A stretch of DNA of 14,483 bases from a virus (taxonomy: Duplodnaviria; Heunggongvirae; Uroviricota; Caudoviricetes): positions 70,308-84,790 of IMG/VR virus record IMGVR_UViG_3300027763_000047; one strand, 5' to 3'. Shown here piece by piece: positions 1,012-14,357 of this stretch (the stretch's first letter is position 1; each line of letters starts with the position of its first letter). The position numbers and the translations under genes are program-made. The notes beneath the pieces were generated by a model. It worked only from the letters and a program-made list of their open reading frames with translations. It made no database searches and was not told where the DNA came from.

Positions 1012-1703
1012 TGAGAGACGAAATTTACAGTATTGTTGAAAGATTAGCTGCCCTGGAAGGACGTATCGATACCCAGGCAAGCGGGACTATTACAGAATCT
1101 CGACAGAAAAAACCAGCCCTTTTCAACTACCTGAAAAGAACTGACGAAATGTTTAGTCCCGGCGTGTCGGGTGTAGAGTTTGCTGAAGATACTGTTGAAG
1201 AAGATGTACTGGCCCGAGTTAAACAAGGACTAGCCGACTATCTCAAATCCGCGGAAGATGGTAAACAGGACAAAACTTTAATTAAAAAACAAAAACAAGA
1301 TTTAGATTTAAAGAAAAAAGAATTACGTGATCGAACACTACAAACTAAAGACCCGACCCATGTAAGTGATATGGAAGAAGATCCAACACAAGGTCCACAT
1401 TCATCAGCATCGGGCGGCGGATCAAACCCCACATATGCACGTGAAAGCCGTGAAACTGCACCTGTTAAGACTATACATATTCCGGTAGGTGAAGAAGTTG
1501 GACTGAGTGGCGGTGGTGGTAGTACGCTAGTGGAAATACATGGCGATGAGCGCGATGGGTTCTGTATTAAATGTGCTGGTAAAGAAATGCGGTCTCGATT
1601 TAAGACCCTGGATGAATGCCAAATAGCATTGGAAATGTATATGGCACACCGTAGAGCCAAACACGAAAGCGGTGGCACTGATGATTATATTGAGGAAGCA
1701 TAA
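1011..1703 (+). CDS. Hypothetical protein, 230 aa, charged and low-complexity
   Basis: TAATG-coupled on both sides. Lys-rich coiled-coil-like centre and several hydrophobic-x-Glu sites (ITE|S, FAE|D, VEE|D, MEE|D). Confidence 0.8.
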   Translation: MRDEIYSIVERLAALEGRIDTQASGTITESRQKKPALFNYLKRTDEMFSPGVSGVEFAEDTVEEDVLARVKQGLADYLKSAEDGKQDKTLIKKQKQDLDLKKKELRDRTLQTKDPTHVSDMEEDPTQGPHSSASGGGSNPTYARESRETAPVKTIHIPVGEEVGLSGGGGSTLVEIHGDERDGFCIKCAGKEMRSRFKTLDECQIALEMYMAHRRAKHESGGTDDYIEEA

Positions 1704-4700
1704 TGAATTTGTTTAACCTGTTTGAAAATGACCGTTCGAGAAGAAATAAGGCACGTACTATCAGAGATCTATTCGACAGATGGACTAACAGTGAATACGC
1801 ACCTTTCAATAGTGATTCCGGTGACCATAATGAAGTTATACGTAAAGCAGCAAGTTTCTTACAGGATATTGTAGACCCCAGTCAAGTTGAAAGATTGTCA
1901 CATAAATTAAGCGACTATTGGCATGGCGAAGATGGCATGGAGTTAGATGAAAAGCTGGGCTCACAGTTGGTTAATCGTCGTCAAGCACACGCTCTTATCA
2001 CCAAATTTAAAAGACATAGTTTTGGAGAAGGCGATGCATCTGAATCAGAAGGTGCTGGTGTATTTGATGTTGGTGATCATGTACTGTTTAAAGGGCATTC
2101 GGCCGAGGTTATTGAGGTAGATGGAACAGCAGCCACTATACGTGTTCCTAATTGGAAAAATGTTTCTGGTATGGTTGACGATACTACGGAAGTTGATCCT
2201 GCAAGTCATTTCTTAACACCCATAATGTCGGAAAGCGACAGTGGGACAGTTGATATGACGGGTAAGAAATGTACTGCTTGTAAAAAAGGCACTTATCAAG
2301 AAACTAGTCAGCACGACGACATGGATGGGGTGCTACATTGCACCAAGTGTCGCAAGGAAGTCAAGCGTCATCAGTCTGCTAAACCAAAAGAGAAAGGTGT
2401 GTCGGAAGGCAAAAAGGTAGATCGTTTTGTTGGGTATGTTGAAAAGAGCGAGGAAAAGGCCGGCAAGTCAAAGAAAGATGCCGAAAGCATTGCTTGGGCC
2501 ACAGCCAACAAACGTGGTATGCTGGATAACAAGAATAAAAAAAAAGTTAAAGAAGATAGCATAGCTGATCAAGCAGCTAGAGATACACAGACTATGATGC
2601 AGGCATTCCAATCTGGACAAATGAAGCCCCAGGAGTTTGCACCTGGAGAAATCAAACCTTCTCAAATATATGGTCATCCCAAATGGCGAGAAACTATACA
2701 GGCTATGCTTAAAAAATATCCTAACAATCAAGAGCAAGGACGACAAGCTGCCGTAGATGCAATCAAACAAATGATCCAACAGGGAAATATTCAGGAAGGA
2801 TTATCCAAAGAATTAGGTAAATGGATGAAATCCACATCTGGAAAAAGAATTTCGGAAGCAGGAGAATCAAACAATTATACTGCTAATGGATTTGTTGGAT
2901 CCGACACTGGCGGCGGAGCATTTAGTGGATATAGAAGTCAACAGCGCCGGCCGACATGGTCGATCCAAGGCACCCCGCCACCTGCAATGCAATATCAAAA
3001 AGGTCCTGCGCCAGCTAATCCCCCTGAAATGCAATATCAAAAAGGTCCGGCTCCTGCCAGCAAAACTCCATTTAATTTCAGCGATTACGAATATGGCCCT
3101 GATAACACTACAATAGTCCCGAAGAAAAAGGCTGCACCGCCCGAGCCGAAAATAGATCAAACCTTTAGAGATAATCCTCCGGCCTATTTGCCTGACGTAG
3201 AAACTAAAGATCAGTTCAACCAGAGGACGCAGCAATGGCAGCAGAAGTTCGGCCCTCAACTGGGTGGTACTACTTCTGCGCCGGGGTACGAACAACCTGC
3301 ACCTGGGAAAAAGGCACCAACTGACACTTCTGATCCATTAGCAAAAAATAATTCACAATATGCTGTTCCTAATATGCCCAGTAGCCCAGTAGATACTACT
3401 AATCCATTAGCACCAAATAATTCACAATATGCTGCTCCTCCTAGCGTACCAACTCCTGCGCCACAGAGTGCTGCTCCGGCACCACAGAGTGCTGCTCCGG
3501 CACCACAGAGTGCTGCTCCGGCACCACAGAGTGCTGCTCCTGCACCACAAAAATCACGCCCAGGGTTGGCACCAGGTGCTGATCCGCAGGTTTATGATTG
3601 GCAACAAGAATTAAGAAAGAAGAATCCAGCACTCGTTGCAGACGGACTATGGGGTCCTGGTACAGATGCCGAAGCAAAACGACAACCTGACATTAAGCCG
3701 CCGGAGACAGCTAAACCAATGCCAGCTCAACCCGTGCCGCGTCAACAACCAGCACAACCAAAAACAACTGCACCTGAAGAACCTGCGCAACAAACTGGAC
3801 CAGTTACTACAACAATCAGTTCAGACGAAGCTGAAAGACGTAGACGCGAAGGCGGTGTCATGGCACCAAAAAGTGGCGCTGAGGACTATTTTAATCAACA
3901 CTATAATCCGGACGGTACTGAAAAAGTACAACCTGCACCAGTACGTCCTAAGCCTGCGCCGGCACGGCCGGCACCTGCTCCACAGCCGGCACAACCCGCA
4001 CCAGTACGCCCTAGCCCTGCCCCACAGCAAGCACAACCTGCGCCACCAGTAAAGGCACAGCCTAGCCCTGAAATGGGGCAAGCGATGCCTGCGCCGGGGT
4101 ACGAAGAGCCTGCACCTAGGAAAAAAGCACCACCTGAGTCGAAACTCGAATACTACCGCCGAACAGATCCCAAAGGATACGAACGCTATATGTACCTCCA
4201 AAACCTCAGCCAAACAGATCCCAAAGAATACGAACGCCAAATGCGACAATTAAATCCCCAAAATTACCCACCACAAACTGAGTCAAAGAATAACTCCAAG
4301 CCCAAGAGTATGAAACGTGCAGCCAATGACGCAACAGGTGCCAAGTTTGGTGGATACTATAAAGGTACACAAAAAGGTGCGCCACGACCAGGACAAGGTT
4401 TTGGCTCCATGGAAGAAGGTATCGCCGGCAACATGACAGTTCGTTCTGATACACTGACCAATTTAAAGAAACCTGAAGATTTGACCATGAAGACGGCGGA
4501 TCCACTTAAAGGAAATCCTAACCGTAATGCATTGGTAAGCGCACAAGCAAGAAACCTTGTGGCCAAGGGTGCTCAGACAGCTGGTCCAGGAACAGGGGCT
4601 CATACAAATAAAGCTCTGGATGTTAAGAAAGGTGACTTCCGTAAAATGAAGCACAAAGGTTCTTTTGATTTTTCAGAATCAACTAACTTTTTAGCCTGGG

Positions 4701-5068
4701 CCATGGCATCTGGGTATAACGTTATTGGCAATCCAGCAGTATATGAATCTGCCAAGTACGAATACAATATGCTATTAGCAGAAGTAAAAAAAAAAGTTAA
4801 AGAAGCTGTAGATCCCAACGCAGCAGCACCAGCCGCTGCGCCTGCTGCACCTCCTGCTCCGCCGCCGCCTACACCCGACGACAATATTCCCGACCTAAAG
4901 CCGGGACAATATTTTGTTTGGCGTGTATATTTTGATGATGGTACCAAAACACGTATGAAGATTACAGATCCCAAGTTTGATGTAAATAAATATTATGCTG
5001 ATAAAAATATATCAGTGATTAATGTAGATTACAATTGGAAACCTAGAGGTAAAGCTAATGCAGTTTGA
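1703..5068 (+). CDS. 1121-aa mosaic low-complexity protein, putative internal head or virion protein. Contains an SH3/KOW-like segment, a CxxC...CxxC zinc ribbon, a PG_binding_1-like motif and Pro/Ala/Gln repeats
   Basis: Long uninterrupted ORF, TAATG-coupled. FDVGDHVLFKGHSAEVIEVDG (about 2063-2125), CTAC...CTKC (2270-2350), VYDWQQELRKKNPALVADGLWGPGT (within 3572-3685). Confidence 0.85.
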   Translation: MNLFNLFENDRSRRNKARTIRDLFDRWTNSEYAPFNSDSGDHNEVIRKAASFLQDIVDPSQVERLSHKLSDYWHGEDGMELDEKLGSQLVNRRQAHALITKFKRHSFGEGDASESEGAGVFDVGDHVLFKGHSAEVIEVDGTAATIRVPNWKNVSGMVDDTTEVDPASHFLTPIMSESDSGTVDMTGKKCTACKKGTYQETSQHDDMDGVLHCTKCRKEVKRHQSAKPKEKGVSEGKKVDRFVGYVEKSEEKAGKSKKDAESIAWATANKRGMLDNKNKKKVKEDSIADQAARDTQTMMQAFQSGQMKPQEFAPGEIKPSQIYGHPKWRETIQAMLKKYPNNQEQGRQAAVDAIKQMIQQGNIQEGLSKELGKWMKSTSGKRISEAGESNNYTANGFVGSDTGGGAFSGYRSQQRRPTWSIQGTPPPAMQYQKGPAPANPPEMQYQKGPAPASKTPFNFSDYEYGPDNTTIVPKKKAAPPEPKIDQTFRDNPPAYLPDVETKDQFNQRTQQWQQKFGPQLGGTTSAPGYEQPAPGKKAPTDTSDPLAKNNSQYAVPNMPSSPVDTTNPLAPNNSQYAAPPSVPTPAPQSAAPAPQSAAPAPQSAAPAPQSAAPAPQKSRPGLAPGADPQVYDWQQELRKKNPALVADGLWGPGTDAEAKRQPDIKPPETAKPMPAQPVPRQQPAQPKTTAPEEPAQQTGPVTTTISSDEAERRRREGGVMAPKSGAEDYFNQHYNPDGTEKVQPAPVRPKPAPARPAPAPQPAQPAPVRPSPAPQQAQPAPPVKAQPSPEMGQAMPAPGYEEPAPRKKAPPESKLEYYRRTDPKGYERYMYLQNLSQTDPKEYERQMRQLNPQNYPPQTESKNNSKPKSMKRAANDATGAKFGGYYKGTQKGAPRPGQGFGSMEEGIAGNMTVRSDTLTNLKKPEDLTMKTADPLKGNPNRNALVSAQARNLVAKGAQTAGPGTGAHTNKALDVKKGDFRKMKHKGSFDFSESTNFLAWAMASGYNVIGNPAVYESAKYEYNMLLAEVKKKVKEAVDPNAAAPAAAPAAPPAPPPPTPDDNIPDLKPGQYFVWRVYFDDGTKTRMKITDPKFDVNKYYADKNISVINVDYNWKPRGKANAV
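2986..3048 (+). repeat. Identical 21-nt direct repeat AATGCAATATCAAAAAGGTCC x2 (period 42 nt; MQYQKGPAP)
   Basis: Copies at 2986-3006 and 3028-3048. Confidence 0.9.
3323..3439 (+). repeat. Imperfect direct repeat, period 69 nt (DTSDPLAKNNSQYAVP / DTTNPLAPNNSQYAAP)
   Basis: Copies start at 3323 and 3392 and share AATAATTCACAATATGCTG. Confidence 0.85.
3455..3549 (+). repeat. In-frame tandem repeat, 21-nt unit CCGGCACCACAGAGTGCTGCT, about 4.5 copies (PAPQSAA)
   Basis: Units start at 3455, 3476, 3497 and 3518, with a partial unit at 3539. No spacers between units. Confidence 0.95.
4162..4237 (+). repeat. 25-nt direct repeat with one mismatch (TDPKGYER / TDPKEYER), period 51 nt
   Basis: Copies at 4162-4186 and 4213-4237. 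Confidence 0.88.
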
Positions 5069-5147
5069 TAACGAGTATCCAGTATATCCCGAACAACAGG
5101 AAGGTGACGACAGTGATTACAAGCGTAATCCATACGCACCTACCTGA
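5058..5147 (+). CDS. Small ORF absent from the supplied track, 29 aa: MQFDNEYPVYPEQQEGDDSDYKRNPYAPT
   Basis: ATG at 5058 with SD-like GAGGT at 5046-5050. Overlaps the last 11 nt of the upstream gene and fills most of the 5069-5177 gap. TGA at 5145-5147. Confidence 0.6.
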   Translation: MQFDNEYPVYPEQQEGDDSDYKRNPYAPT

Positions 5148-5177
5148 ATAGACAGACGTTACGGCGACAAATAACCT

Positions 5178-5732
5178 ATGCATATACACGAAATTATTAC
5201 AGAAACAGAAGATATCAGTCGACAATTAACCCAAGCACAGTTTATGCAAGGGCAATGTGCTGTATTAGCCCTCACGATACATAACATTGATTTCTGGAGG
5301 TATCAATTGGGATTTATTTACGAATTCTTTGATGAGATGCCAGACATATACTTAGATCCTGACGAATTTGCAGCATTAGATCCACATATGCAACAAAGTA
5401 TAAAAACCGATGATCGACATTGGGCGTTGACTCACGCTTATGTAATGGATTCTCGAACAGGGGAGTACATAGATGCAACAGGGCGACACAAAAATCCCCC
5501 TGATATTGGATATGGATTTAATGCCACACGGCACAATAAATTTCCTGCAGAGAGTGTAGACTTGGTAAGAGTCAGTACCCATATGGAGTGGGACGAGCAA
5601 AAAGAAGAGTGGATTATACTACGTGGGTGGGACGCTCTTGATAAAGTATACACCCCCGAAAATAAACAAAAAGCCCGAGAATACGCTATTAAGTATTTGG
5701 GGGTTAAAGACCCTGCCTTAGGGACCGTTTGA
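5178..5732 (+). CDS. Hypothetical protein with a candidate transglutaminase/papain-like Cys-His-Asp triad
   Basis: GQC27AVLA, H86AYV and YID99AT. Leader MHIHEIITE resembles a capsid-targeting sequence. Confidence 0.75.
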   Translation: MHIHEIITETEDISRQLTQAQFMQGQCAVLALTIHNIDFWRYQLGFIYEFFDEMPDIYLDPDEFAALDPHMQQSIKTDDRHWALTHAYVMDSRTGEYIDATGRHKNPPDIGYGFNATRHNKFPAESVDLVRVSTHMEWDEQKEEWIILRGWDALDKVYTPENKQKAREYAIKYLGVKDPALGTV

Positions 5733-5804
5733 TGCTGCGGTAAAGGCGTCCGTGCAATTGAACTGCCCCGCGTAGTGGGCGGGGGATAAAGTAACCCCCA
5801 TTTT
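5711..5804 (+). other. GC-rich, multi-helix element (candidate structured RNA or regulatory element)
   Basis: 54 of 90 nt are G+C in 5711-5800, within an otherwise AT-rich window. Helices: 5711-14/5720-23, 5724-28/5737-41, 5731-36/5745-50, 5765-68/5777-80 and 5781-85/5795-99. Confidence 0.5.
5781..5804 (+). terminator. Possible intrinsic terminator GGGGG-ataaagtaa-CCCCC-ATTTT
   Basis: 5-bp GC stem followed by a short U tract at the end of the left gene block. The large loop and short U tract make it weak. Confidence 0.4.
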
Positions 5805-5814
5805 ACCATTACTC

Positions 5815-5842
5815 TTGTTTAATATAGCGATTAATGTATAAT
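5815..5842 (+). promoter_or_regulatory. Sigma70-like promoter for the replication block (TTGTTT-16 nt-TATAAT)
   Basis: Perfect -10 TATAAT at 5837-5842, -35-like TTGTTT at 5815-5820, SD AAGGA at 5854-5858 and ATG at 5865. Confidence 0.6.
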
Positions 5843-5864
5843 ATATTTTTAACAAGGAACTATT

Positions 5865-6125
5865 ATGTCAGACAGAATCTTTTCAGGCGAAGCTACTAAA
5901 AAACTCGAATCAATGATTAACGAGGGTATGGCAGTTATGCAGGAAATCGAAACACTTACCGGTGGATTGAATGACACCATTAAAGCCGTAGCAGAAGAAT
6001 TGGAAATTAAACCCGGTATCCTTAAAAAGGCAATTCGGTTAGCACACAAATCTGAATTTGGCCGCGAACAGCAGGATCATGAATTGTTGGAAACTATCCT
6101 AACACAGGTCGGGAAAACTCTTTAA
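5865..6125 (+). CDS. Small helical dsDNA-binding protein, T4 DsbA-like
   Basis: 86 aa with a good SD. The pattern LNDTIKAVAEELEIKPGILKKAIRLAHK...EQQDHELLETIL parallels T4 DsbA in size and spacing. Abuts the polymerase. Confidence 0.65.
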   Translation: MSDRIFSGEATKKLESMINEGMAVMQEIETLTGGLNDTIKAVAEELEIKPGILKKAIRLAHKSEFGREQQDHELLETILTQVGKTL

Positions 6126-8786
6126 GTGAGTTATGTAGACGCATTATATTCCCGCGACGCGGATCGTATACATATTGTAGAACGTGTTGATGGTAAAAGA
6201 GTATACAAAGAATATCCAGCCAATCACATATTTTATTATGATGATCCCCGTGGTAAGTTCCAGTCAATATATGGAACTTCTGTGGCTCGTTTCTCCAGCC
6301 GGAACTTAAAAGAGTTTCGTAGGGAAGTGGCGGTGCAAAAAGGTCGGCAACTTTACGAATCCGATATTAACCCCGTGTTCCGTTGTCTGGAAGAAAACTA
6401 TAAAGACAAAGATGCGCCAACACTACACGCAGCGTTTTTCGATATTGAGGTAGACTTCCACAAAGAACGAGGATACAGTCCTACGTCAGATCCATTTAAT
6501 GCTATTACCGCAATATCAGTCTATCTGCAATGGATAGATCAATTGGTCACCTTGGTTATTCCACCAAAACACATGAGCATGGAGACAGCACAGGAGATAG
6601 CATCGGAATTTGAAAACACTATTGTATTTGATAGTGAGGAGGAGATGCTAAAAACTTTCCTGGATCTAATTGAAGATGCAGATGTACTGTCAGGTTGGAA
6701 TAGCGAGGGCTATGATATTCCCTACACAGTGAATCGTATTACTCGTGTGTTGAGTAAGGACGACACTCGTAGGTTCTGTCTTTGGGGACAATATCCCAAG
6801 CCACGCGACTACGAACGCTATGGCACTACCAGCACAACATATGATTTAATTGGGCGGGTACATTTGGATTATATGCAGTTGTATATACAATATACATATG
6901 AGGAACGACATAGTTATAGTCTGGATGCTATTGCTGAGTATGAGTTAAACGAACACAAGACACAATACGAAGGAACACTGGATCAACTGTATAATCAAAA
7001 CTTTAAAAAGTTTATTGAATATAACAGACAGGATACAATGATCCTGAATAAACTTGACACCAAGTTACGCTTCTTGGACCTAGCCAATGAACTAGCACAC
7101 GCTAACACAGTAACTCTGCAGAAGACCATGAGTGCAGTGGCGGTGACGGAACAGGCTATTATCAATGAAGCACATGAGCGTGGATTGGTCGTTCCCAATA
7201 AGAAACAACGATTACACGATGAGGATACTGCCGCGGCGGCAGGTGCTTATGTTGCGTATCCTAAAAAAGGTATACACGAATGGATTGGTGCTGTGGATAT
7301 TAACAGTCTGTATCCATCAGCTATTCGTGCGTTGAATATGGGAATGGAAACGGTAATTGGTCAATTACGTCCGGTAATGACCGATCGATATCTTGATGAT
7401 CTTATCAGTCAGGGAAAATCTGCAACAGCAGCATGGGAAGGTATATTTGCATCGTTAGAATATACTGCGGTGATGGAACAGCAACGCGGTACTGAGATCA
7501 CTGTAGACTGGCAGAATGGTGAGAAGTCCGTACACTCGGCTGCTGAGATCTGGAACATGGTGTTTAACAGTAACCAACCCTGGATACTGACTGCTAATGG
7601 TACCATTGTCACTTATGAGCGCAAGGGTGTTGTCCCGGGACTGCTGGAGCGGTGGTATGCTGAACGTAAAGAACTACAGGCCAAGAAGAAAGCAGCTACC
7701 GATCCAAAAGAAATAGCATTTTGGGATAAGCGTCAGTTGGTTAAGAAAATTAACCTAAACAGCTTATATGGTGCTATTCTTAATCAACATTGTCGGTTCT
7801 TTGACAAGCGTATTGGACAGTCAACTACGCTGACTGGTCGTAGTATTGCTCGTCATATGGCCGGTCATATCAATGAATGTATCATGGGTGTTAAGGATCA
7901 TGTAGGCGAAGCCATCGTATATGGTGATACAGACTCATGTTACTTTACTGCTTGGCCCGCGATTAAAGACGACGTAGCTAAGGGCGCAATGACCTGGAAC
8001 AAGGACATGTGTATACAGTTATATGATAATATTGCTGATCAAGTTAACGAATCATTTCCAGCATTTATGGAACAGGCATTCCACTGCCCGCGAGAGATGG
8101 GCGAACTGATCAAAGCAGGGCGCGAGCTGGTGGCATCTAACAGTTTGTTTATTACCAAGAAACGCTATGCTGTGTTGATCTATGACCTTGAAGGTAAACG
8201 ATTGGATACCGATGGTAATCCTGGAAAGATTAAGGCCATGGGATTGGATCTAAAAAGATCAGATACTCCTAAAGTGGTGCAGGAGTTCTTGTATGAGATT
8301 CTGGAAAAGGTCTTGACGGGTACATCACGTGATGATATTATTGAAAGAATACGAGAATTTAAATATGCGTTTAAAGATAGACCAGCTTGGGAAAAAGGCA
8401 CTCCTAAACGTGTTAACAATCTAACTACATACACCAAGAAAGAAGAAGCTGCGGGTAAGGCTAATCTTCCCGGTCATGTTCGTGCAGCATTAAATTGGAA
8501 TAATCTGCGCAGAATGAACAGCGACAAATATAGTATGCAGATCGTTGATGGTATGAAAACTGTGGTGTGCAAACTAAAGGCTAATCCACTAGGTTGGACT
8601 AGTATTGGTTATCCTACAGATGAACAACGCTTGCCCGAATGGTTTAAGGAATTGCCATTTGACCACAGTTTAATGGAAGCCACAATTGTAGATCAAAAGA
8701 TCGATAACCTGCTAAGTGTACTAAACTGGGATCTAGCAAGTGCCACTAACACAGAAAATACTTTCCAATCACTATTTGAGTTTTAA
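6126..8786 (+). CDS. polB: Family B DNA polymerase with 3'-5' exonuclease (T4 gp43-like)
   Basis: ExoI FFDIEVD, ExoII GWNSEGYDIPY, ExoIII YNRQD, motif A DINSLYPS, motif B KINLNSLYG, motif C YGDTDS, and KKRY. GTG start directly after the upstream TAA. Confidence 0.97.
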   Translation: MSYVDALYSRDADRIHIVERVDGKRVYKEYPANHIFYYDDPRGKFQSIYGTSVARFSSRNLKEFRREVAVQKGRQLYESDINPVFRCLEENYKDKDAPTLHAAFFDIEVDFHKERGYSPTSDPFNAITAISVYLQWIDQLVTLVIPPKHMSMETAQEIASEFENTIVFDSEEEMLKTFLDLIEDADVLSGWNSEGYDIPYTVNRITRVLSKDDTRRFCLWGQYPKPRDYERYGTTSTTYDLIGRVHLDYMQLYIQYTYEERHSYSLDAIAEYELNEHKTQYEGTLDQLYNQNFKKFIEYNRQDTMILNKLDTKLRFLDLANELAHANTVTLQKTMSAVAVTEQAIINEAHERGLVVPNKKQRLHDEDTAAAAGAYVAYPKKGIHEWIGAVDINSLYPSAIRALNMGMETVIGQLRPVMTDRYLDDLISQGKSATAAWEGIFASLEYTAVMEQQRGTEITVDWQNGEKSVHSAAEIWNMVFNSNQPWILTANGTIVTYERKGVVPGLLERWYAERKELQAKKKAATDPKEIAFWDKRQLVKKINLNSLYGAILNQHCRFFDKRIGQSTTLTGRSIARHMAGHINECIMGVKDHVGEAIVYGDTDSCYFTAWPAIKDDVAKGAMTWNKDMCIQLYDNIADQVNESFPAFMEQAFHCPREMGELIKAGRELVASNSLFITKKRYAVLIYDLEGKRLDTDGNPGKIKAMGLDLKRSDTPKVVQEFLYEILEKVLTGTSRDDIIERIREFKYAFKDRPAWEKGTPKRVNNLTTYTKKEEAAGKANLPGHVRAALNWNNLRRMNSDKYSMQIVDGMKTVVCKLKANPLGWTSIGYPTDEQRLPEWFKELPFDHSLMEATIVDQKIDNLLSVLNWDLASATNTENTFQSLFEF

Positions 8787-9713
8787 ATGACAGTAACGGA
8801 ATTAGTACATTTTAAAAATCAACTGGATAAGCTGTCGGTTCCGCCTATACTAGAGAAGGCGGATATCGCTTTACAAGAATTTTCTCATGTAATGTCCGTG
8901 CATTCGTCTACTGATGTCGATAAGATTATCAACAGCCATGCAGCTATCAAAGAAGCATTTAATTCTTTTGACAATGAATTAGCTGAGATTAAACGCAACT
9001 TAAAAAGCAACATTGAAGAAGCGGAACGAGTATTATTTCAACAAAGCTATAGAGCATACCATGATGAAAGTATCTACGATGCGCACCATATTCTAGGTAG
9101 GCGTTGGCAACCCGATATTAATCTTGAATTGTTTTATTCTAGAGTTAAGAAAACAGTGGATTGGCATTATCCCGCTATGATTTTCCGCCCGGGATTTGCC
9201 AACTTCATTGATGATATGGTGGGATACGATCCCTTATATCTCGTTGAAGTTAGCCATCAATTTTTAGAACCAGTATTAACGAAATTTAACCCGCAATATC
9301 AGAGAAGACTGCGTCCATATATTATTAAAGAACACACTGACGATCCGCTGCTAGACCGATTGCCCAACGAACAGTTTGGTGTAATTGTAGGGTGTCACTT
9401 TTTTAACTTTAGGCCCCTGGAAGTGATTAAGAAATACCTGTCGGAAATTTATACCAAATTAAGACCAGGTGGTGTGTTTATGCTGACGTTCAATGACTGC
9501 GATCGTTGGCCAGCAGTAAAATTAGTGGAAGAAAAGAAAGACGGCAGTTATACACCCGGTAGTTTAGTTTTTGAATTGGCAAAATCCATGGGGTATACTA
9601 TAGATTATTGCTGGCATGATGAAGGTCCACAGACCTGGCTTGAATTACGCAAACCCGGTATGTTATCATCGCTGAGAGGCGGACAGACTTTGGCAAAAAT
9701 AATTTCAAAATAG
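8787..9713 (+). CDS. Class I SAM-dependent methyltransferase-fold protein with a helical N-terminal extension
   Basis: C-terminal LDRLPNEQFGVIV...YLSEIYTKLRPGGVFML is typical of class I methyltransferases. Motif I is degenerate (MIFRPG). Acidic residue at the end of the predicted beta-2 strand (YLVE). Confidence 0.65.
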   Translation: MTVTELVHFKNQLDKLSVPPILEKADIALQEFSHVMSVHSSTDVDKIINSHAAIKEAFNSFDNELAEIKRNLKSNIEEAERVLFQQSYRAYHDESIYDAHHILGRRWQPDINLELFYSRVKKTVDWHYPAMIFRPGFANFIDDMVGYDPLYLVEVSHQFLEPVLTKFNPQYQRRLRPYIIKEHTDDPLLDRLPNEQFGVIVGCHFFNFRPLEVIKKYLSEIYTKLRPGGVFMLTFNDCDRWPAVKLVEEKKDGSYTPGSLVFELAKSMGYTIDYCWHDEGPQTWLELRKPGMLSSLRGGQTLAKIISK

Positions 9714-9743
9714 TTGCAAGGTCTAAATACAATCTGTTATACT
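9714..9743 (+). promoter_or_regulatory. Sigma70-like promoter (TTGCAA-18 nt-TATACT, extended -10 TGn) with a late-type CTAAATACA nested in its spacer
   Basis: TTGCAA at 9714-9719, TG at 9735-36, TATACT at 9738-9743, CTAAATACA at 9723-9731. SD-like AAAGGA precedes the ATG at 9768. Confidence 0.6.
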
Positions 9744-9767
9744 ACATTTATTATAAAAGGAAATAAA

Positions 9768-10490
9768 ATGCGAGATCATCTATTAGATTTAATCAGTCAC
9801 ATTCATGCATTGGGCGGCATCGACCAGCTAAGAATTTCAGGTACAGACACAGAAACAAATTTCAACGCTATTGCTGACGATCGTTCGGTGGTAATTGACG
9901 GTATGTTTATTAATCCCGTAGCAGACTTCATGGGCACATTTGGTATGCCCAATTTGAAGAAACTTAGTATTCTATTGAACTTAAAAGAATACCAAGAAGG
10001 TGCTAAGTTAACTATGAGCCGCAAAGATACCGGAGCCCCGGATCAACTGACTTTTGTAAACACCAACGGTGACTTTAAAAACAGCTATCGTTTTATGGCA
10101 GAAGCCCTGGCTAATGAAAAGATCAAACCTCCCAAGTTTAAAGACGTTACCTGGAACGTTGAATTTGAACCTAGTGCTGCTGCTATTCTGCGTTTAAAGA
10201 TGCAAGCGTCAGCTAACGAAGAAGAAAATACATTCCAAGCTAAAGTTGAAGATGGGGATCTGAAGTTTTACTTTGGTGACCATAGCTCACACGCTGGTAA
10301 CTTTGTATTCCAACCTGATGTAGGTGGTGATATCAAACGTGCATGGCAATGGCCCGTTAAGACAGTTATTGGCATTTTGGATTTAGCTGGTGACAAAATT
10401 ATGCGTATTAGCGATGGCGGTGCTACACAAATCATTGTTAACTCTGGTTTGGCAATCTATACTTTCATTATTCCAGCGCAGACAAAGTAA
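9768..10490 (+). CDS. DNA polymerase sliding clamp (T4 gp45-like), 240 aa
   Basis: Size and segment pattern parallel gp45 (FGMPNLKKLSILLNL; YRFM...KIKPPKF; VEFEPSAAAILRL). Replisome context. Start moved from the track's TTG at 9714 to the ATG at 9768, which follows an SD. Confidence 0.7.
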   Translation: MRDHLLDLISHIHALGGIDQLRISGTDTETNFNAIADDRSVVIDGMFINPVADFMGTFGMPNLKKLSILLNLKEYQEGAKLTMSRKDTGAPDQLTFVNTNGDFKNSYRFMAEALANEKIKPPKFKDVTWNVEFEPSAAAILRLKMQASANEEENTFQAKVEDGDLKFYFGDHSSHAGNFVFQPDVGGDIKRAWQWPVKTVIGILDLAGDKIMRISDGGATQIIVNSGLAIYTFIIPAQTK

Positions 10491-10493
10491 TCA

Positions 10494-12092
10494 ATGACTC
10501 AAGATAACCTTACCGCCAAACAACTGGACTATGCGATTTTTCTTCCTGCATTGTCGGGTTTTTACTCCAGCTATATAGGCAAACAACGTGGCGGCGTTCA
10601 CGTTGAACCTGCTCGTATGCCCGCCAATATCCAGGATATGGAGATGCTTAATTGGCTCAACGACCAAAAGGCATTGTTCCCATATAAATGGAGTCTGTAC
10701 TCCGCGGGGCATGCCAATTTAGATATCAATAAACAGGACTGGGCCGAAGACATGGTGCGTAATCGTGATCCCAATACATTCCTGTTGGGTGATTCAGGCG
10801 GGTTCCAGATCGGCAAAGGTCGATGGGAAGGTGACTGGAAAAATCCTGCATGTCCCAAAGCAAAACAAAAACGTGAGCAAGTTCTTGCCTGGATGGATGC
10901 GTATATGGACTATGGCATGGTACTGGATGTGCCTACATGGATTACCAACTTTCCCAATAGTCGCAAGGTCACTGGTATCAATACATATCAAGACGCTGTT
11001 GATGCTACGTATATTAATAATGAATATTTTATTGCCAATCGTTCGGGCAAATGTAAATTTTTAAATGTACTACAGGGTGGCAATCAAACAGACGCACACA
11101 AGTGGTATAACACCATGAAGAAGTATTGTGATCCAAAACAATATCCCGGCAAACATTTTAATGGCTGGGCACTGGGCGGACAACATACGTCTGATATTGA
11201 ACTGGTATTAAAAAGAATAGTTACACTTAGGTTTGAAGGATTGCTTGAAGAAGGTCTACATGACTGGATGCACTTCCTGGGTATTGGTAGACTTGAGTGG
11301 GCGTTGATGTTGACCGACATTCAACGTGCTGTTCGTAAATATCACAATCCAAACTTTACTGTTAGCTTTGACTGTGCAAGTCCATTCTTGGCTACTGCCA
11401 ATGGACAAGTATATCATCAAATTGATATTCAGGATAGGAAGAAGTGGTGCTATCGCATGAGTCCTATTGTTGACAATAAAAAGTACGCGACTGACACACG
11501 CACATATCGTGATGCGGTGCTACAAGATGGCCTAATAAAACACTTTGACGAGAGCCCAATGAGTGCAAACTTCCTGGTTAAAGATATCTGTTACTATAAA
11601 GATGGAGTTCCTAAAACTCCGGCTGAATTGGGAACGGAAACTTTTGATCCAGCTAATCCAGCACATTACACAGTGATGCCTGATCTAAATAAAATAGGCA
11701 AGATAGGTAGAACAAGTTGGGACTCGTTTAGCTATGCATTGCTAATGGGACACAATGTCTGGACTCATATTGAATCTGTGCAGCGTTCCAATCGTGAGTA
11801 TGATGCTGGAATTTGTCCCACTATGCTGGTAGAAGAAAAGTTTGAACAGCTATATTTCAGAGATTTAGTAGATGCCATATTTTCTATTGACAATTTAGAA
11901 GATGCTCTTGCTTTCATTGACTATCATGATAAATTTTGGCAACGGTTCGTTGGCACTAAAGGCGCTACTGGAAAGAAAACTGTTAATTCACGTACTATGT
12001 TTGATGCGTTATTTGAAATCCCCGATTATACGCAAGTAGATGAATCTGAACTGGATGAGTCTAAACTTGAAGATCTGGAAAAATCCGCATGA
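10494..12092 (+). CDS. dpdA: TGT-fold guanine transglycosylase, DpdA-like (probable 7-deazaguanine insertion into DNA)
   Basis: TGT catalytic and binding motifs in the expected order: GD100SGGFQ, VLD145, LQ194G, ALG228G, H260FLG, SFD293C and GH420N. No CxCxxC Zn motif. Confidence 0.8.
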   Translation: MTQDNLTAKQLDYAIFLPALSGFYSSYIGKQRGGVHVEPARMPANIQDMEMLNWLNDQKALFPYKWSLYSAGHANLDINKQDWAEDMVRNRDPNTFLLGDSGGFQIGKGRWEGDWKNPACPKAKQKREQVLAWMDAYMDYGMVLDVPTWITNFPNSRKVTGINTYQDAVDATYINNEYFIANRSGKCKFLNVLQGGNQTDAHKWYNTMKKYCDPKQYPGKHFNGWALGGQHTSDIELVLKRIVTLRFEGLLEEGLHDWMHFLGIGRLEWALMLTDIQRAVRKYHNPNFTVSFDCASPFLATANGQVYHQIDIQDRKKWCYRMSPIVDNKKYATDTRTYRDAVLQDGLIKHFDESPMSANFLVKDICYYKDGVPKTPAELGTETFDPANPAHYTVMPDLNKIGKIGRTSWDSFSYALLMGHNVWTHIESVQRSNREYDAGICPTMLVEEKFEQLYFRDLVDAIFSIDNLEDALAFIDYHDKFWQRFVGTKGATGKKTVNSRTMFDALFEIPDYTQVDESELDESKLEDLEKSA

Positions 12093-13000
12093 AGAGTCTT
12101 GTTATAGGTATGGGCATCGGCCAGTTATATCTTCATGTATTAGTTGAGTTAGGTCACGAAGTTGTTACTGTTGATAGTGATGCTGCTAAATCAGCCGATT
12201 ATACTAACGTAAAATCAGCATTACAGGAACACGCATATTTTGATACAGTAAACATTTGTACTCCTAACTTTACTCATTTGGAGATAGCAAGGGCTGTAGC
12301 TAAACATGCCAGGATCGTGTTCATTGAAAAACCAGGGTTAGAAACTTCAGCACAATGGAAACATCTATGTAATGAGTTTCCCGACACACGTTTTATGATG
12401 GTTAAGAATAATCAATATCGTGATAATATTAATGTATTAGCACAACTAGCACATAAGGCAACGATTATTAATCTAACATGGAACAACAACGATCGTGTTC
12501 CTAACCCTGGCACTTGGTTTACCACGTATGATTTATCGTTTGGTGGAGTAAGTAGAGATTTAATTCCACACTTATTAAGTTTATTCCAATCGCTGTCAGG
12601 CTTTACTCATGATCAAGCTAAACTAGATTACGAAACAGTGGATCAACGTTGGCAATTAAAAGACTTAATCAAAACTGACTATGGCATTGTAAATCCTAAT
12701 GGAGTATATGATGTCGAAGATCATATAGAATTGCATTTTAATGACGCACAAGGCCGTAAGTGGTTTATTGAAAGTGACTGGCGTACACTAAATGGTGACG
12801 ATCGCAGTATTCTAATGATATTTGCGGATGGGTCTCGTTATTATTATGAATTAGGCTTGTGTCCTGAAGATGCGTATAAGCGTATGATTGATACTGCTGT
12901 TAAAATGACGGACGTCGACGCATACTGGCAACATCAATATGAGTTGGATATGTGGATACATAAAACAATTGAATCGCTTGATTTAGTGGGGGCAACATGA
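12089..13000 (+). CDS. Gfo/Idh/MocA family NAD(P)-dependent oxidoreductase
   Basis: N-terminal VIGMGIG Rossmann motif, ICTPNFTH, FIE80KP and GGVSRD157LIPH161. ATGA-coupled to the dpdA-like gene. Confidence 0.9.
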   Translation: MKSLVIGMGIGQLYLHVLVELGHEVVTVDSDAAKSADYTNVKSALQEHAYFDTVNICTPNFTHLEIARAVAKHARIVFIEKPGLETSAQWKHLCNEFPDTRFMMVKNNQYRDNINVLAQLAHKATIINLTWNNNDRVPNPGTWFTTYDLSFGGVSRDLIPHLLSLFQSLSGFTHDQAKLDYETVDQRWQLKDLIKTDYGIVNPNGVYDVEDHIELHFNDAQGRKWFIESDWRTLNGDDRSILMIFADGSRYYYELGLCPEDAYKRMIDTAVKMTDVDAYWQHQYELDMWIHKTIESLDLVGAT

Positions 13001-13902
13001 GAACAAGAATTTTATATACAGATGGGAAGGGTAAGTTTACGGAAACAGGTTGGAATAAACCCGATCCCACCGCAGATGAGATTGAAGTCAAAGCCGTTAT
13101 GACCGGAGTATGCCGCAGCGACATTGACATGATGACTGGGGGCTTTGGTCCATTACCCTTGGAAATGAGTGGGCACGAAGGTCTGGGCAAGGTTACTCGT
13201 GTTGGGGCAAATGTACTGGACGTACGGGTAGGCGACCTAGTCTCCACTCGCGGCGAGCCAGCATATTCCGACTACTACAATGTTCGGCAGGGAGAGTATG
13301 TATCGGTACCCGAGGCACATCCTCGATACATTATTGAGCCAGTGGCCTGTGGGTATAACCTCATCATGCAGACATATGACGAACTGCTGGCACGACATGG
13401 CGATGGCAGTCGATTGTTAATCCTGGGCAGTGGATTTTTGGCTTGGGTAGCATATAACTCATTAATCATAGAAGGATTGCGATTTGAGGTAGATGTTGTG
13501 GGCAGTAGCAACACCGCAATATGGAAAGATCGATTACAGGATAAACCCGTAGGGCAGTACGATGTTGTTATTGACCTAAGTGATAAGACTACTGTATTTG
13601 ATAGCGATATATTGAATCTTGGTGCATTAGTAGTCATGGGCACACAGAAACAAGTCACAACTGATTTTAGTCAACTGCTATGGAAAGCATGTACCATGGT
13701 ATTTCCCAGTCCCCGCAATCCGAGATTCCATTTAGTCATGGCTCGTGCGGAGTTTTGGGTAAGTAAAGGTAACTTAGATGTTGACTACTTCTGGACGCAA
13801 GCGTATACTAGAGATAGTGAGTGGCAACAGGCTTTTGACGATGGCTTAAATCGTCCCAAAAATTATAGCCGTGGTTATATTGTATGGCAGGATAACAAAT
13901 GA
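12997..13902 (+). CDS. Zn-dependent medium-chain (MDR) dehydrogenase lacking the structural-Zn lobe
   Basis: GVC39RSD, GH60E61GLG, GDLV, IE114PVAC and Rossmann LILGSGFLA. The four-Cys loop is absent. ATGA-coupled. Confidence 0.9.
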   Translation: MRTRILYTDGKGKFTETGWNKPDPTADEIEVKAVMTGVCRSDIDMMTGGFGPLPLEMSGHEGLGKVTRVGANVLDVRVGDLVSTRGEPAYSDYYNVRQGEYVSVPEAHPRYIIEPVACGYNLIMQTYDELLARHGDGSRLLILGSGFLAWVAYNSLIIEGLRFEVDVVGSSNTAIWKDRLQDKPVGQYDVVIDLSDKTTVFDSDILNLGALVVMGTQKQVTTDFSQLLWKACTMVFPSPRNPRFHLVMARAEFWVSKGNLDVDYFWTQAYTRDSEWQQAFDDGLNRPKNYSRGYIVWQDNK

Positions 13903-14357
13903 TTAATCAACAACGACAACAAGCATTAGCAGAAGAAGCTATCCGTATTATGTATAAAGCAGAACGTAAAGTATGGGTAACCTTTCGCAAAGAAGGTATT
14001 CACAAGTATCCCGCAGCAGCAACAGATCCCTTACTAGCAACAGGTGATGAATATGATGTGTCATTTCTAGCTAATGAGCATAGACATATTTTCCACTTCC
14101 GTGTTTGGATTGATGTATTTCATAACGATCGTGATATTGAGTTTATTCAGTTTAAACGATGGTTAGAAAATCTTTACAAAGATGGTATTCTATCATTAGA
14201 TTATAAATCATGCGAAATGATCGCAGATGATTTATATATTAACATTTCTGCACGTTATCCTAAACGTGCGGTGTGGATTGAGGTCTCCGAAGATGGTGAG
14301 AACGGATGCCTCATTAAATACGAACTTTCTCGCCCTTCACAAACAGTATTAATTTAA
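13899..14357 (+). CDS. QueD-like T-fold protein, DpdL-type
   Basis: EGIH, L57ANEH61RH63IF65 in place of QueD CxxxHGH, DRDIEF, SCEMIA (compare TAENIA) and VSEDGEN. ATGA-coupled. Confidence 0.75.
   Translation: MINQQRQQALAEEAIRIMYKAERKVWVTFRKEGIHKYPAAATDPLLATGDEYDVSFLANEHRHIFHFRVWIDVFHNDRDIEFIQFKRWLENLYKDGILSLDYKSCEMIADDLYINISARYPKRAVWIEVSEDGENGCLIKYELSRPSQTVLI

Follow-up and report, generated by a model that had tools for sequence, protein, structure and literature searches.

Why should a base-exchange enzyme of a phage carry, close to its C-terminus, a peptide of the same form as the one in which the phage's DNA polymerase ends? The question is raised by a stretch of 14,483 nucleotides (hereafter, the window; positions 70,308 to 84,790 of the IMG/VR record IMGVR_UViG_3300027763_000047, Caudoviricetes) in which the replication module of a jumbo phage is encoded; the phage is uncultured and a relative of Pseudomonas phage PA5oct. 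A gene for a family-B polymerase is followed by those for a 308-amino acid (aa) protein, a PCNA-type sliding clamp and then an enzyme of the tRNA-guanine transglycosylase (TGT) superfamily. The original prediction, made from the letters alone, was that this enzyme, labelled DpdA-like, is recruited to the clamp by a motif that it shares with the polymerase. The answer that we favor, and consider fairly probable, is that the enzyme, through its polymerase-like tail peptide, holds the sliding clamp of the phage and modifies DNA as it is copied. Comparative evidence and one structural model indicate that the enzyme probably binds the clamp; that the substrate is DNA, and which base is inserted, we infer.

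A tail peptide common to polymerase and enzyme

The family-B replicative DNA polymerase (886 aa; 6126..8786, plus strand) is recognized by Pfam DNA_pol_B (6.9 × 10−36) and DNA_pol_B_exo1 (7 × 10−18) and by phrog_262 (3 × 10−190). Translation of positions 8700-8800 ends in NTENTFQSLFEF and a stop, so that FQSLFEF (8763..8783, plus strand), as first read, comprises the last 7 residues of this open reading frame (ORF). The peptide is presumed to be a clamp-binding tail by analogy with T4 gp43, which ends in EKASLDFLFG; the thumb region of the polymerase was aligned to RB69/T4 gp43 chains at 5 × 10−13, in an alignment that ended short of the C-terminus. The gene is intact in the window; in the relative L001 (relatives are given by locus number), it is split by a PvuRts1I-like gene (L001:3033-6800), in PA5oct it is interrupted by a Hef-like homing endonuclease (L005:5605-10831), and the polymerase of L006 carries an intein (L006:4955-9154).

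The enzyme (532 aa; 10494..12092, plus strand), assigned to the TGT superfamily by fold, active-site motifs and context, consists of a globular part (residues 1 to ~488) and a tail. Translation of positions 11901-12100, which ends in GTKGATGKKTVNSRTMFDALFEIPDYTQVDESELDESKLEDLEKSA and a stop, places FDALFEI at residues 503-509 (12000-12020), with a basic stretch before it and an acidic one after it, as had been described. The tail, all on the plus strand, thus reads as a basic Gly/Lys linker (residues 483-501, 11940..11996; net charge +5), which shows at least 90% conservation at G487-G490 and G493-K495; the motif MFDALFEI (residues 502-509, 11997..12020), which is of the clamp-binding type as judged by conservation, disorder and the complex model; and an acidic stretch (residues 510-532, 12021..12089; net charge −7) that ends in the conserved helix LDESKLEDLE. 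The motif is not packed into the core: the monomer model has a single segment with a predicted local distance difference test score (pLDDT) below 50, residues 489-516, which comes directly after the globular domain (end near residue 488) and includes the motif, with a short helix at residues 503-506.

In an alignment of 60 sequences, F503, L506 and F507 are at least 90% conserved and the flanking linker varies; among 120 close homologues, the block GTRG..GKK..N...[MQ]F..LF is kept and the acidic stretch after it varies. A second conserved patch, [LF]DExxLDxLE, coincides with the C-terminal helix (residues 522-531, 12057-12086; pLDDT 70-81), where L525, L528 and E529 reach at least 90% conservation in the 60-sequence alignment; it was found only in lineages with an internal LF motif, PA5oct included.

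When 111 full-length representatives, taken from clusters at ≤50% identity, were compared, a hydrophobic-x-x-[LM]F pattern occurred in the last 60 residues of 42, vs. 2.7 for windows from the protein body and 11 for shuffled tails (500 control trials, highest count 21). Many enzyme tails that could not be aligned end plainly in SLFEF, LFDFS, MFDY or LFDFGG. By its pattern of conservation, then, the tail peptide behaves as a short linear motif. A scan of the window's own 84.8-kb contig (133 ORFs, 26,175 residues) for F..LF[ED][FILVWM] returned 3 sites vs. 0.11 expected from composition, two of them being the polymerase and enzyme motifs. The third, FTTLFDF at residue 39 of an HNH-endonuclease-like ORF (45484-46017, outside the window), may be a chance occurrence.

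Conservation and pairing with the polymerase tail among relatives

The motif proved to be conserved in enzyme homologues from clamp-encoding phages and, in nine lineages with identity down to ~30%, matches the tail of the cognate polymerase. Polymerase, clamp and enzyme occur together in 83 of the 86 non-redundant loci, and the clamp gene immediately precedes the enzyme gene, or is one gene away from it, in 83 of 87 loci. Related polymerases nearly always (81/84) end in F..[LM]F.[FWY] within the last 12 residues; the strict form F..[LM]F is kept in 77 of 86 enzymes, the other nine having near-variants such as Y..LF and F..HF. The paired peptides are TFQSLFEF (polymerase) and MFDALFEI (enzyme) in the window, TFETLFEW and MFNNLFEV in L003, TFDALFSFD and TFGNLFEE in the L009 group, TFSSLFDFGD and FFDNLFEV in the L027 group, HFDSLFGW and SFNSLFDV in PA5oct, TLDDLFDF and VVNNLFDFS in L008, AMKLFNY and AKSLFEF in L006, LSTFFEF and NLSLFEF in L094, and VNKMFTF and AMKLFDFGG in L095. 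In distant lineages, the enzyme motif stands at the extreme C-terminus, in the exact form found in the polymerase. Phenylalanine at position −3 is present in both polymerase and enzyme or in neither, and is missing from both in four distant lineages. Co-evolution of the two proteins was considered as a further signal and set aside: residue-by-residue covariation is weak, and only F at −3 tracks, over few independent changes.

The motif is missing where no clamp is encoded, in three cases only: three motif-less homologues of the enzyme sit in bacterial chromosomal islands beside integrases, with no polymerase or clamp nearby. One further homologue, L097, carries the motif on a contig of 3 kb, a length that does not allow the presence of a clamp to be judged. 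Each of the motif-less homologues is preceded by an overlapping gene for a protein of 535-573 aa without a Pfam family (L098:8367-9974, L099:8283-10004, L100:8341-10011); this protein may be a functional analogue of DpdB.

The sliding clamp and a model of its complex with the enzyme tail

The protein encoded immediately upstream of the enzyme (240 aa; 9768..10490, plus strand) has the two-domain fold of PCNA and gp45. Its AlphaFold2 (AF2) model (pLDDT 86.5, predicted template modelling score 0.84) gave more than 500 Foldseek matches at E ≤ 0.001, of which the top 50 were all PCNA or viral clamps (TM 0.59-0.72, about 0.70; E ~10−10), and its homologues are likewise 240 aa long, which supports the ATG at 9768. 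No sequence match was found in Pfam, NCBIfam or PDB, and the PHROG match, phrog_12062, is of 'unknown function'. Since no curated sequence model recognizes either the clamp or the enzyme, the labels 'clamp' and 'DpdA-like' were tested by fold and context, and on these grounds the first of them is borne out. Clamp homologues in the tail-matched lineages are 24-33% identical to that of the window. The PA5oct homologue, EST35_0314 (L005:10912-11658; 31% identity, E = 10−38), bears the annotation 'structural protein', given on the basis of mass spectrometry of virions; one would not expect this of a replication clamp.

Three clamp copies were modelled together with residues 483-532 of the enzyme, each with its own alignment, and only the partner, i.e. 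the tail, was scored. The runs scored 0.65, 0.65 and 0.67 vs. 0.41 for the best control and 0.01 for the control in which the clamp was replaced; they share at least 50% of contacts, with a partner pLDDT of at least 47. Of 80 solved complexes, 58 attained the mark applied to this score, as did 2 of 110 mismatched pairs; these counts are only rough for the present design. The model places M502, F503, L506 and F507 in a clamp pocket to which the C-terminal tail and the interdomain connector both contribute. With conservation in clamp-encoding phages and the unpacked state of the motif, this makes three computational checks suggested with the original prediction, all of which turned out in its favor. 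The contacts of lowest error join these four residues to clamp residues 38-42, 121-127 (interdomain connector), 217-219 and 234-240 (C-terminal IIPAQTK); linker residues 496-501 also touch the clamp. The docking site as modelled is the canonical site of PCNA-interacting peptides (PIP) and of gp45 ligands.

Identity of the enzyme and its probable substrate

The enzyme shows a (beta/alpha)8 barrel of the TGT type (model mean pLDDT 92). The active-site Asp residues expected of such enzymes are a general acid/base in DSGGFQ, a base-recognition residue and a nucleophile in FDC. D100 (in GDSGGFQ), D145 and D293 (in SFDCASP) occur without exception in 91 homologues (26-97% identity) and, judged by motif and order, appear equivalent to Asp95, Asp130 and Asp256 of DpdA; three active-site Asp residues are invariant across TGT and DpdA (PMC10164549). 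Fold and gene context thus bear out the label 'DpdA-like'. By sequence, the enzyme fits no described DpdA subfamily, and it is best placed as what it is, a deep, unannotated branch of the TGT superfamily with more than 6,600 metagenomic members, none of them named. The enzyme of the window matches neither PF01702 (TGT) nor PF20314 (DpdA4); PF01702 is matched by only 2 of 91 family members, weakly (0.043). The family profile reaches a 'TGT domain-containing protein' of vibriophage GR7B at 4.7 × 10−18, and this protein compared with PF01702 gives 2.3 × 10−5, below the cutoff. The GR7B protein (L090:2602-4218) ends in a Lys-rich basic tail of ~60 residues where the LF motif would be, which may be another way of staying on DNA.

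From its context, the enzyme most likely swaps guanine in DNA for a 7-deazaguanine base, as DpdA does. Because the window stops at the contig end, relatives were read for pathway genes. In L001, a relative with 96% identity, FolE and PTPS/QueD lie within a few kb on the downstream side; in the 64% relative L003, a radical-SAM gene lies between clamp and enzyme, accompanied by FolE and PTPS; PA5oct carries an annotated QueE; and more distant lineages have QueC and FolE (L095) or FolE alone (L008, L096). The last ORF of the window (152 aa; 13899..14357, plus strand) encodes a DpdL-type QueD paralogue, a proposed 7-carboxy-7-deazaguanine decarboxylase, whose LANEHRHIF at residue 57 fits exactly the DpdL signature LxxxHRHxF; DpdL has been tied to 2'-deoxy-7-deazaguanine (dDG) in DNA (Cui et al., PMC10516641). 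This protein is homologous, by its tail sequence, to PA5oct EST35_0318, and a weak PTPS lead came from Atlas. The PA5oct homologue of the enzyme is EST35_0316, annotated as 'hypothetical'. PA5oct virion DNA is resistant to cleavage at five restriction sites that contain G, and nucleases that recognize modified G attack it; the same work names QueE and PTPS in this phage, but no transglycosylase (PMC12191111).

Between the enzyme and FolE, L003 has glycosyltransferase, epimerase and aminotransferase-like genes (L003:14373-17094), and the window instead has a Gfo/Idh/MocA and MDR pair; such differences suggest that lineages vary in how the base is decorated further.

Proposed mechanism and competing explanations

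The TIM-barrel domain of the enzyme continues into the disordered tail, where the basic linker, [MQ]F..LF[ED], the variable acidic part and the conserved short helix succeed one another; in form, the peptide is that of the polymerase end (F..LF.[FW]). In the mechanism that we propose, the enzyme, as is presumed for the polymerase, would insert this peptide into a hydrophobic pocket of the clamp that lies between the C-terminal tail and the interdomain connector; carried by clamps left on newly made duplex, it would then modify DNA at the fork or just behind it. Several observations weigh against this proposal. Kinship among the loci inflates the raw conservation counts. In the window's clade, the enzyme motif stands 23 residues before the C-terminus, in an internal position, and its last residue is I, V or E where the polymerase has F or W. 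The second conserved patch, the C-terminal helix, does not take part in the modelled contacts with the clamp and is not accounted for by the proposal. Because many PCNA-peptide complexes have been solved, the outcome of the complex run amounts to likeness, not proof for this copy, and may come from the model's memory of such structures; one control reached 0.41. Binding of the polymerase tail to this clamp is itself an analogy with T4 and RB69. As to the enzyme, no match was obtained in Pfam (E ≤ 1), PHROGs, NCBIfam, or in phmmer and profile searches of PDB sequences; it has seven Cys and no CxC, CxxC or CxCxxC, so that the CxCxxC zinc motif is absent. Membership in DpdA3 was tried and rejected, the family profile having given no candidate in the DpdA3 carrier Campylobacter phage CP220, and a permissive tblastn search recovered no Campylobacter, Cellulophaga or Flavobacterium phage. 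Without a Pfam, PHROG or NCBIfam match, the zinc motif or detectable kinship to DpdA3, the choice of DNA over tRNA as substrate is made from context.

These points leave room for other explanations of the shared peptide. It might dock not to the clamp but to another factor of the replisome or the phage, such as the clamp loader, the single-strand-binding protein, the helicase or a packaging or compartment factor. The one direct pointer to the clamp is a predicted structure, which may reflect the model's memory; the tail contains, besides the motif, a conserved acidic helix for which no contact with the clamp is predicted; and the T4 gp43 tail also attaches at a second site, the open subunit interface of gp45 (PMC2988020). 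We nevertheless consider this rather unlikely, given the clamp gene adjoining the enzyme gene or standing one gene away in 83 of 87 loci, a motif shaped like known gp45 and PCNA ligands, the score of 0.01 once the clamp was replaced, and the motif-less homologues that have no clamp as neighbor. It is quite unlikely that the enzyme is instead a tRNA-guanine transglycosylase that acts on phage or host tRNA, with a tail motif unrelated to DNA modification. The absent zinc motif and the lack of detectable kinship to DpdA3 noted above leave room for it. Against it, the enzyme is embedded among clamp and polymerase genes in all lineages examined and its tail is of the polymerase type, the virion DNA of PA5oct behaves as if its G were modified and no other transglycosylase has been named for that phage, and the window has the DpdL-type gene that Cui et al. 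link to dDG in DNA.

Two further explanations dispense with a partner. A motif of just 4-7 residues might resemble the polymerase end by chance, as short hydrophobic-acidic sequences do, and have no function; chance is excluded because the motif is conserved, and this explanation is effectively refuted by a conserved island in otherwise variable linkers across roughly 30-96% identity, along with the 3 sites vs. 0.11 expected in the contig and an enrichment in tails above all 500 control trials. Alternatively, the tail could be an intramolecular or dimerization element that folds back on the DNA-binding surface in autoinhibition or bridges subunits, its likeness to the polymerase being convergent. 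TGT enzymes are commonly described as dimers, an acidic tail (−7) lies beside a basic linker (+5), and the C-terminal helix has a pLDDT of 70-81 in the monomer. Against such a role, the monomer model leaves the motif segment undocked from the body, at a pLDDT below 50, distant lineages keep a bare C-terminal LF.[FY] identical in form to the end of the cognate polymerase, and the bacterial homologues lack the tail motif; we regard this explanation as very unlikely.

Neighboring genes

Between polymerase and clamp lies the gene of the conserved 308-aa protein (8787..9713, plus strand), weakly similar to S-adenosylmethionine-dependent methyltransferases (sub-threshold Methyltransf_11/12, E ~0.01), which has a syntenic homologue of 310 aa in L003 (the 64% relative). 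Downstream of the enzyme, the Gfo/Idh/MocA oxidoreductase and Zn-ADH/MDR-like genes (12089..13902, plus strand; Pfam GFO_IDH_MocA, 1.3 × 10−7; ADH_N, 4.7 × 10−10) are co-oriented with the enzyme gene and overlapping, and the same pair is found 3' of the enzyme in the 96%-identical L001. A ParB_N (DpdB-like) lead on a homologue of the window ORF 1703-5068 was not reproduced with the window protein. Elsewhere on the window's contig, at about 4,200-12,500 and outside the window, ~35 tandem small ORFs (60-120 aa) share the C-terminus ...[AT]T.F.L[RK][FW]S and form a large paralogous family.

Implications

Another protein on the same contig, of 154 aa and encoded outside the window (28863-29327; L093:4864-5328), ends in NQLFEI. 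It matches only the N-terminal part of N6_Mtase (PF02384; 27.8 bits vs. a cutoff of 20.4), and in 120 homologues (83-100% identity) LF is invariant within [WL]..LF.[FTI], the following residues varying; the N6_Mtase-like protein is a possible third client of the clamp. A broader reading, which we put forward tentatively and as somewhat less than an even prospect, is that the clamp of this large jumbo-phage group acts as a toolbelt from which DNA is modified, ridden by the DpdA-like transglycosylase and possibly by the N6-methyltransferase-like protein, such that insertion of 7-deazaguanine is coupled to replication and is not a free post-replicative process. Were this toolbelt real, the clamp would take the DNA-tethering role that DpdB has for bacterial DpdA, and dense, genome-wide replacement of guanine could be explained.

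Should the enzyme indeed act from the clamp, base exchange would be physically tied to the fork, and phage sliding clamps would gain a new class of client, in parallel to DNMT1 and PCNA. Two questions are touched by this: how some phages attain very high replacement, and the dependence of bacterial DpdA on an ATPase partner. For PA5oct-like therapeutic phages, which are known to contain modified G in their DNA and of which PA5oct is in culture, the missing transglycosylase would be identified, and more than 6,600 proteins now called 'hypothetical' would receive an annotation as a family.

Comparison with known systems

The proposed arrangement combines two known kinds of protein, clamp clients and DpdA-type transglycosylases, and no published description of it was found: full-text literature searches yielded no publication that joins DpdA or deazaguanine with a sliding clamp, clamp-binding or PCNA. 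Compared with bacterial DpdA (PDB 7ui4) and phage DpdA1-DpdA4, the enzyme is ~100-150 residues longer, has a clamp-type tail and lacks CxCxxC. Bacterial DpdA requires the ParB-like ATPase DpdB to act on DNA (PMC10164549), whereas no DpdB was seen here. Cui et al. describe 7-deazaguanine insertion as post-replicative and the work of free DpdA enzymes, with no clamp mentioned (PMC10516641).

The T4 precedent for a motif shared among clamp clients holds, the motif at the gp43 end being found also in ligase, gp33 and gp55: gp43, ligase (in an internal loop), gp33 and gp55 present one hydrophobic-acidic gp45-binding motif on variable linkers, and it binds a hydrophobic pocket on the C-face of the trimeric two-domain clamp (PMC6212786, PMC2988020). 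Here, similarly, polymerase and enzyme share F..LF, the enzyme tail is disordered, and the model docks it in the equivalent pocket. However, a DNA base-exchange enzyme is not among the described gp45 clients, the present clamp resembles gp45 by fold only, and the consensus is F..LF.Ar, with predicted binding, compared to LDFLF in T4.

A more distant comparison is offered by eukaryotes, in which DNMT1 and UNG2 bind PCNA via PIP boxes (QxxLxxFF). These are different enzymes, which transfer methyl groups or excise bases and do not exchange them, belong to another domain of life and use another motif; what they have in common with the arrangement proposed here is an enzyme that modifies DNA or excises its bases, tethered to the replication clamp by a short peptide and acting on new DNA.

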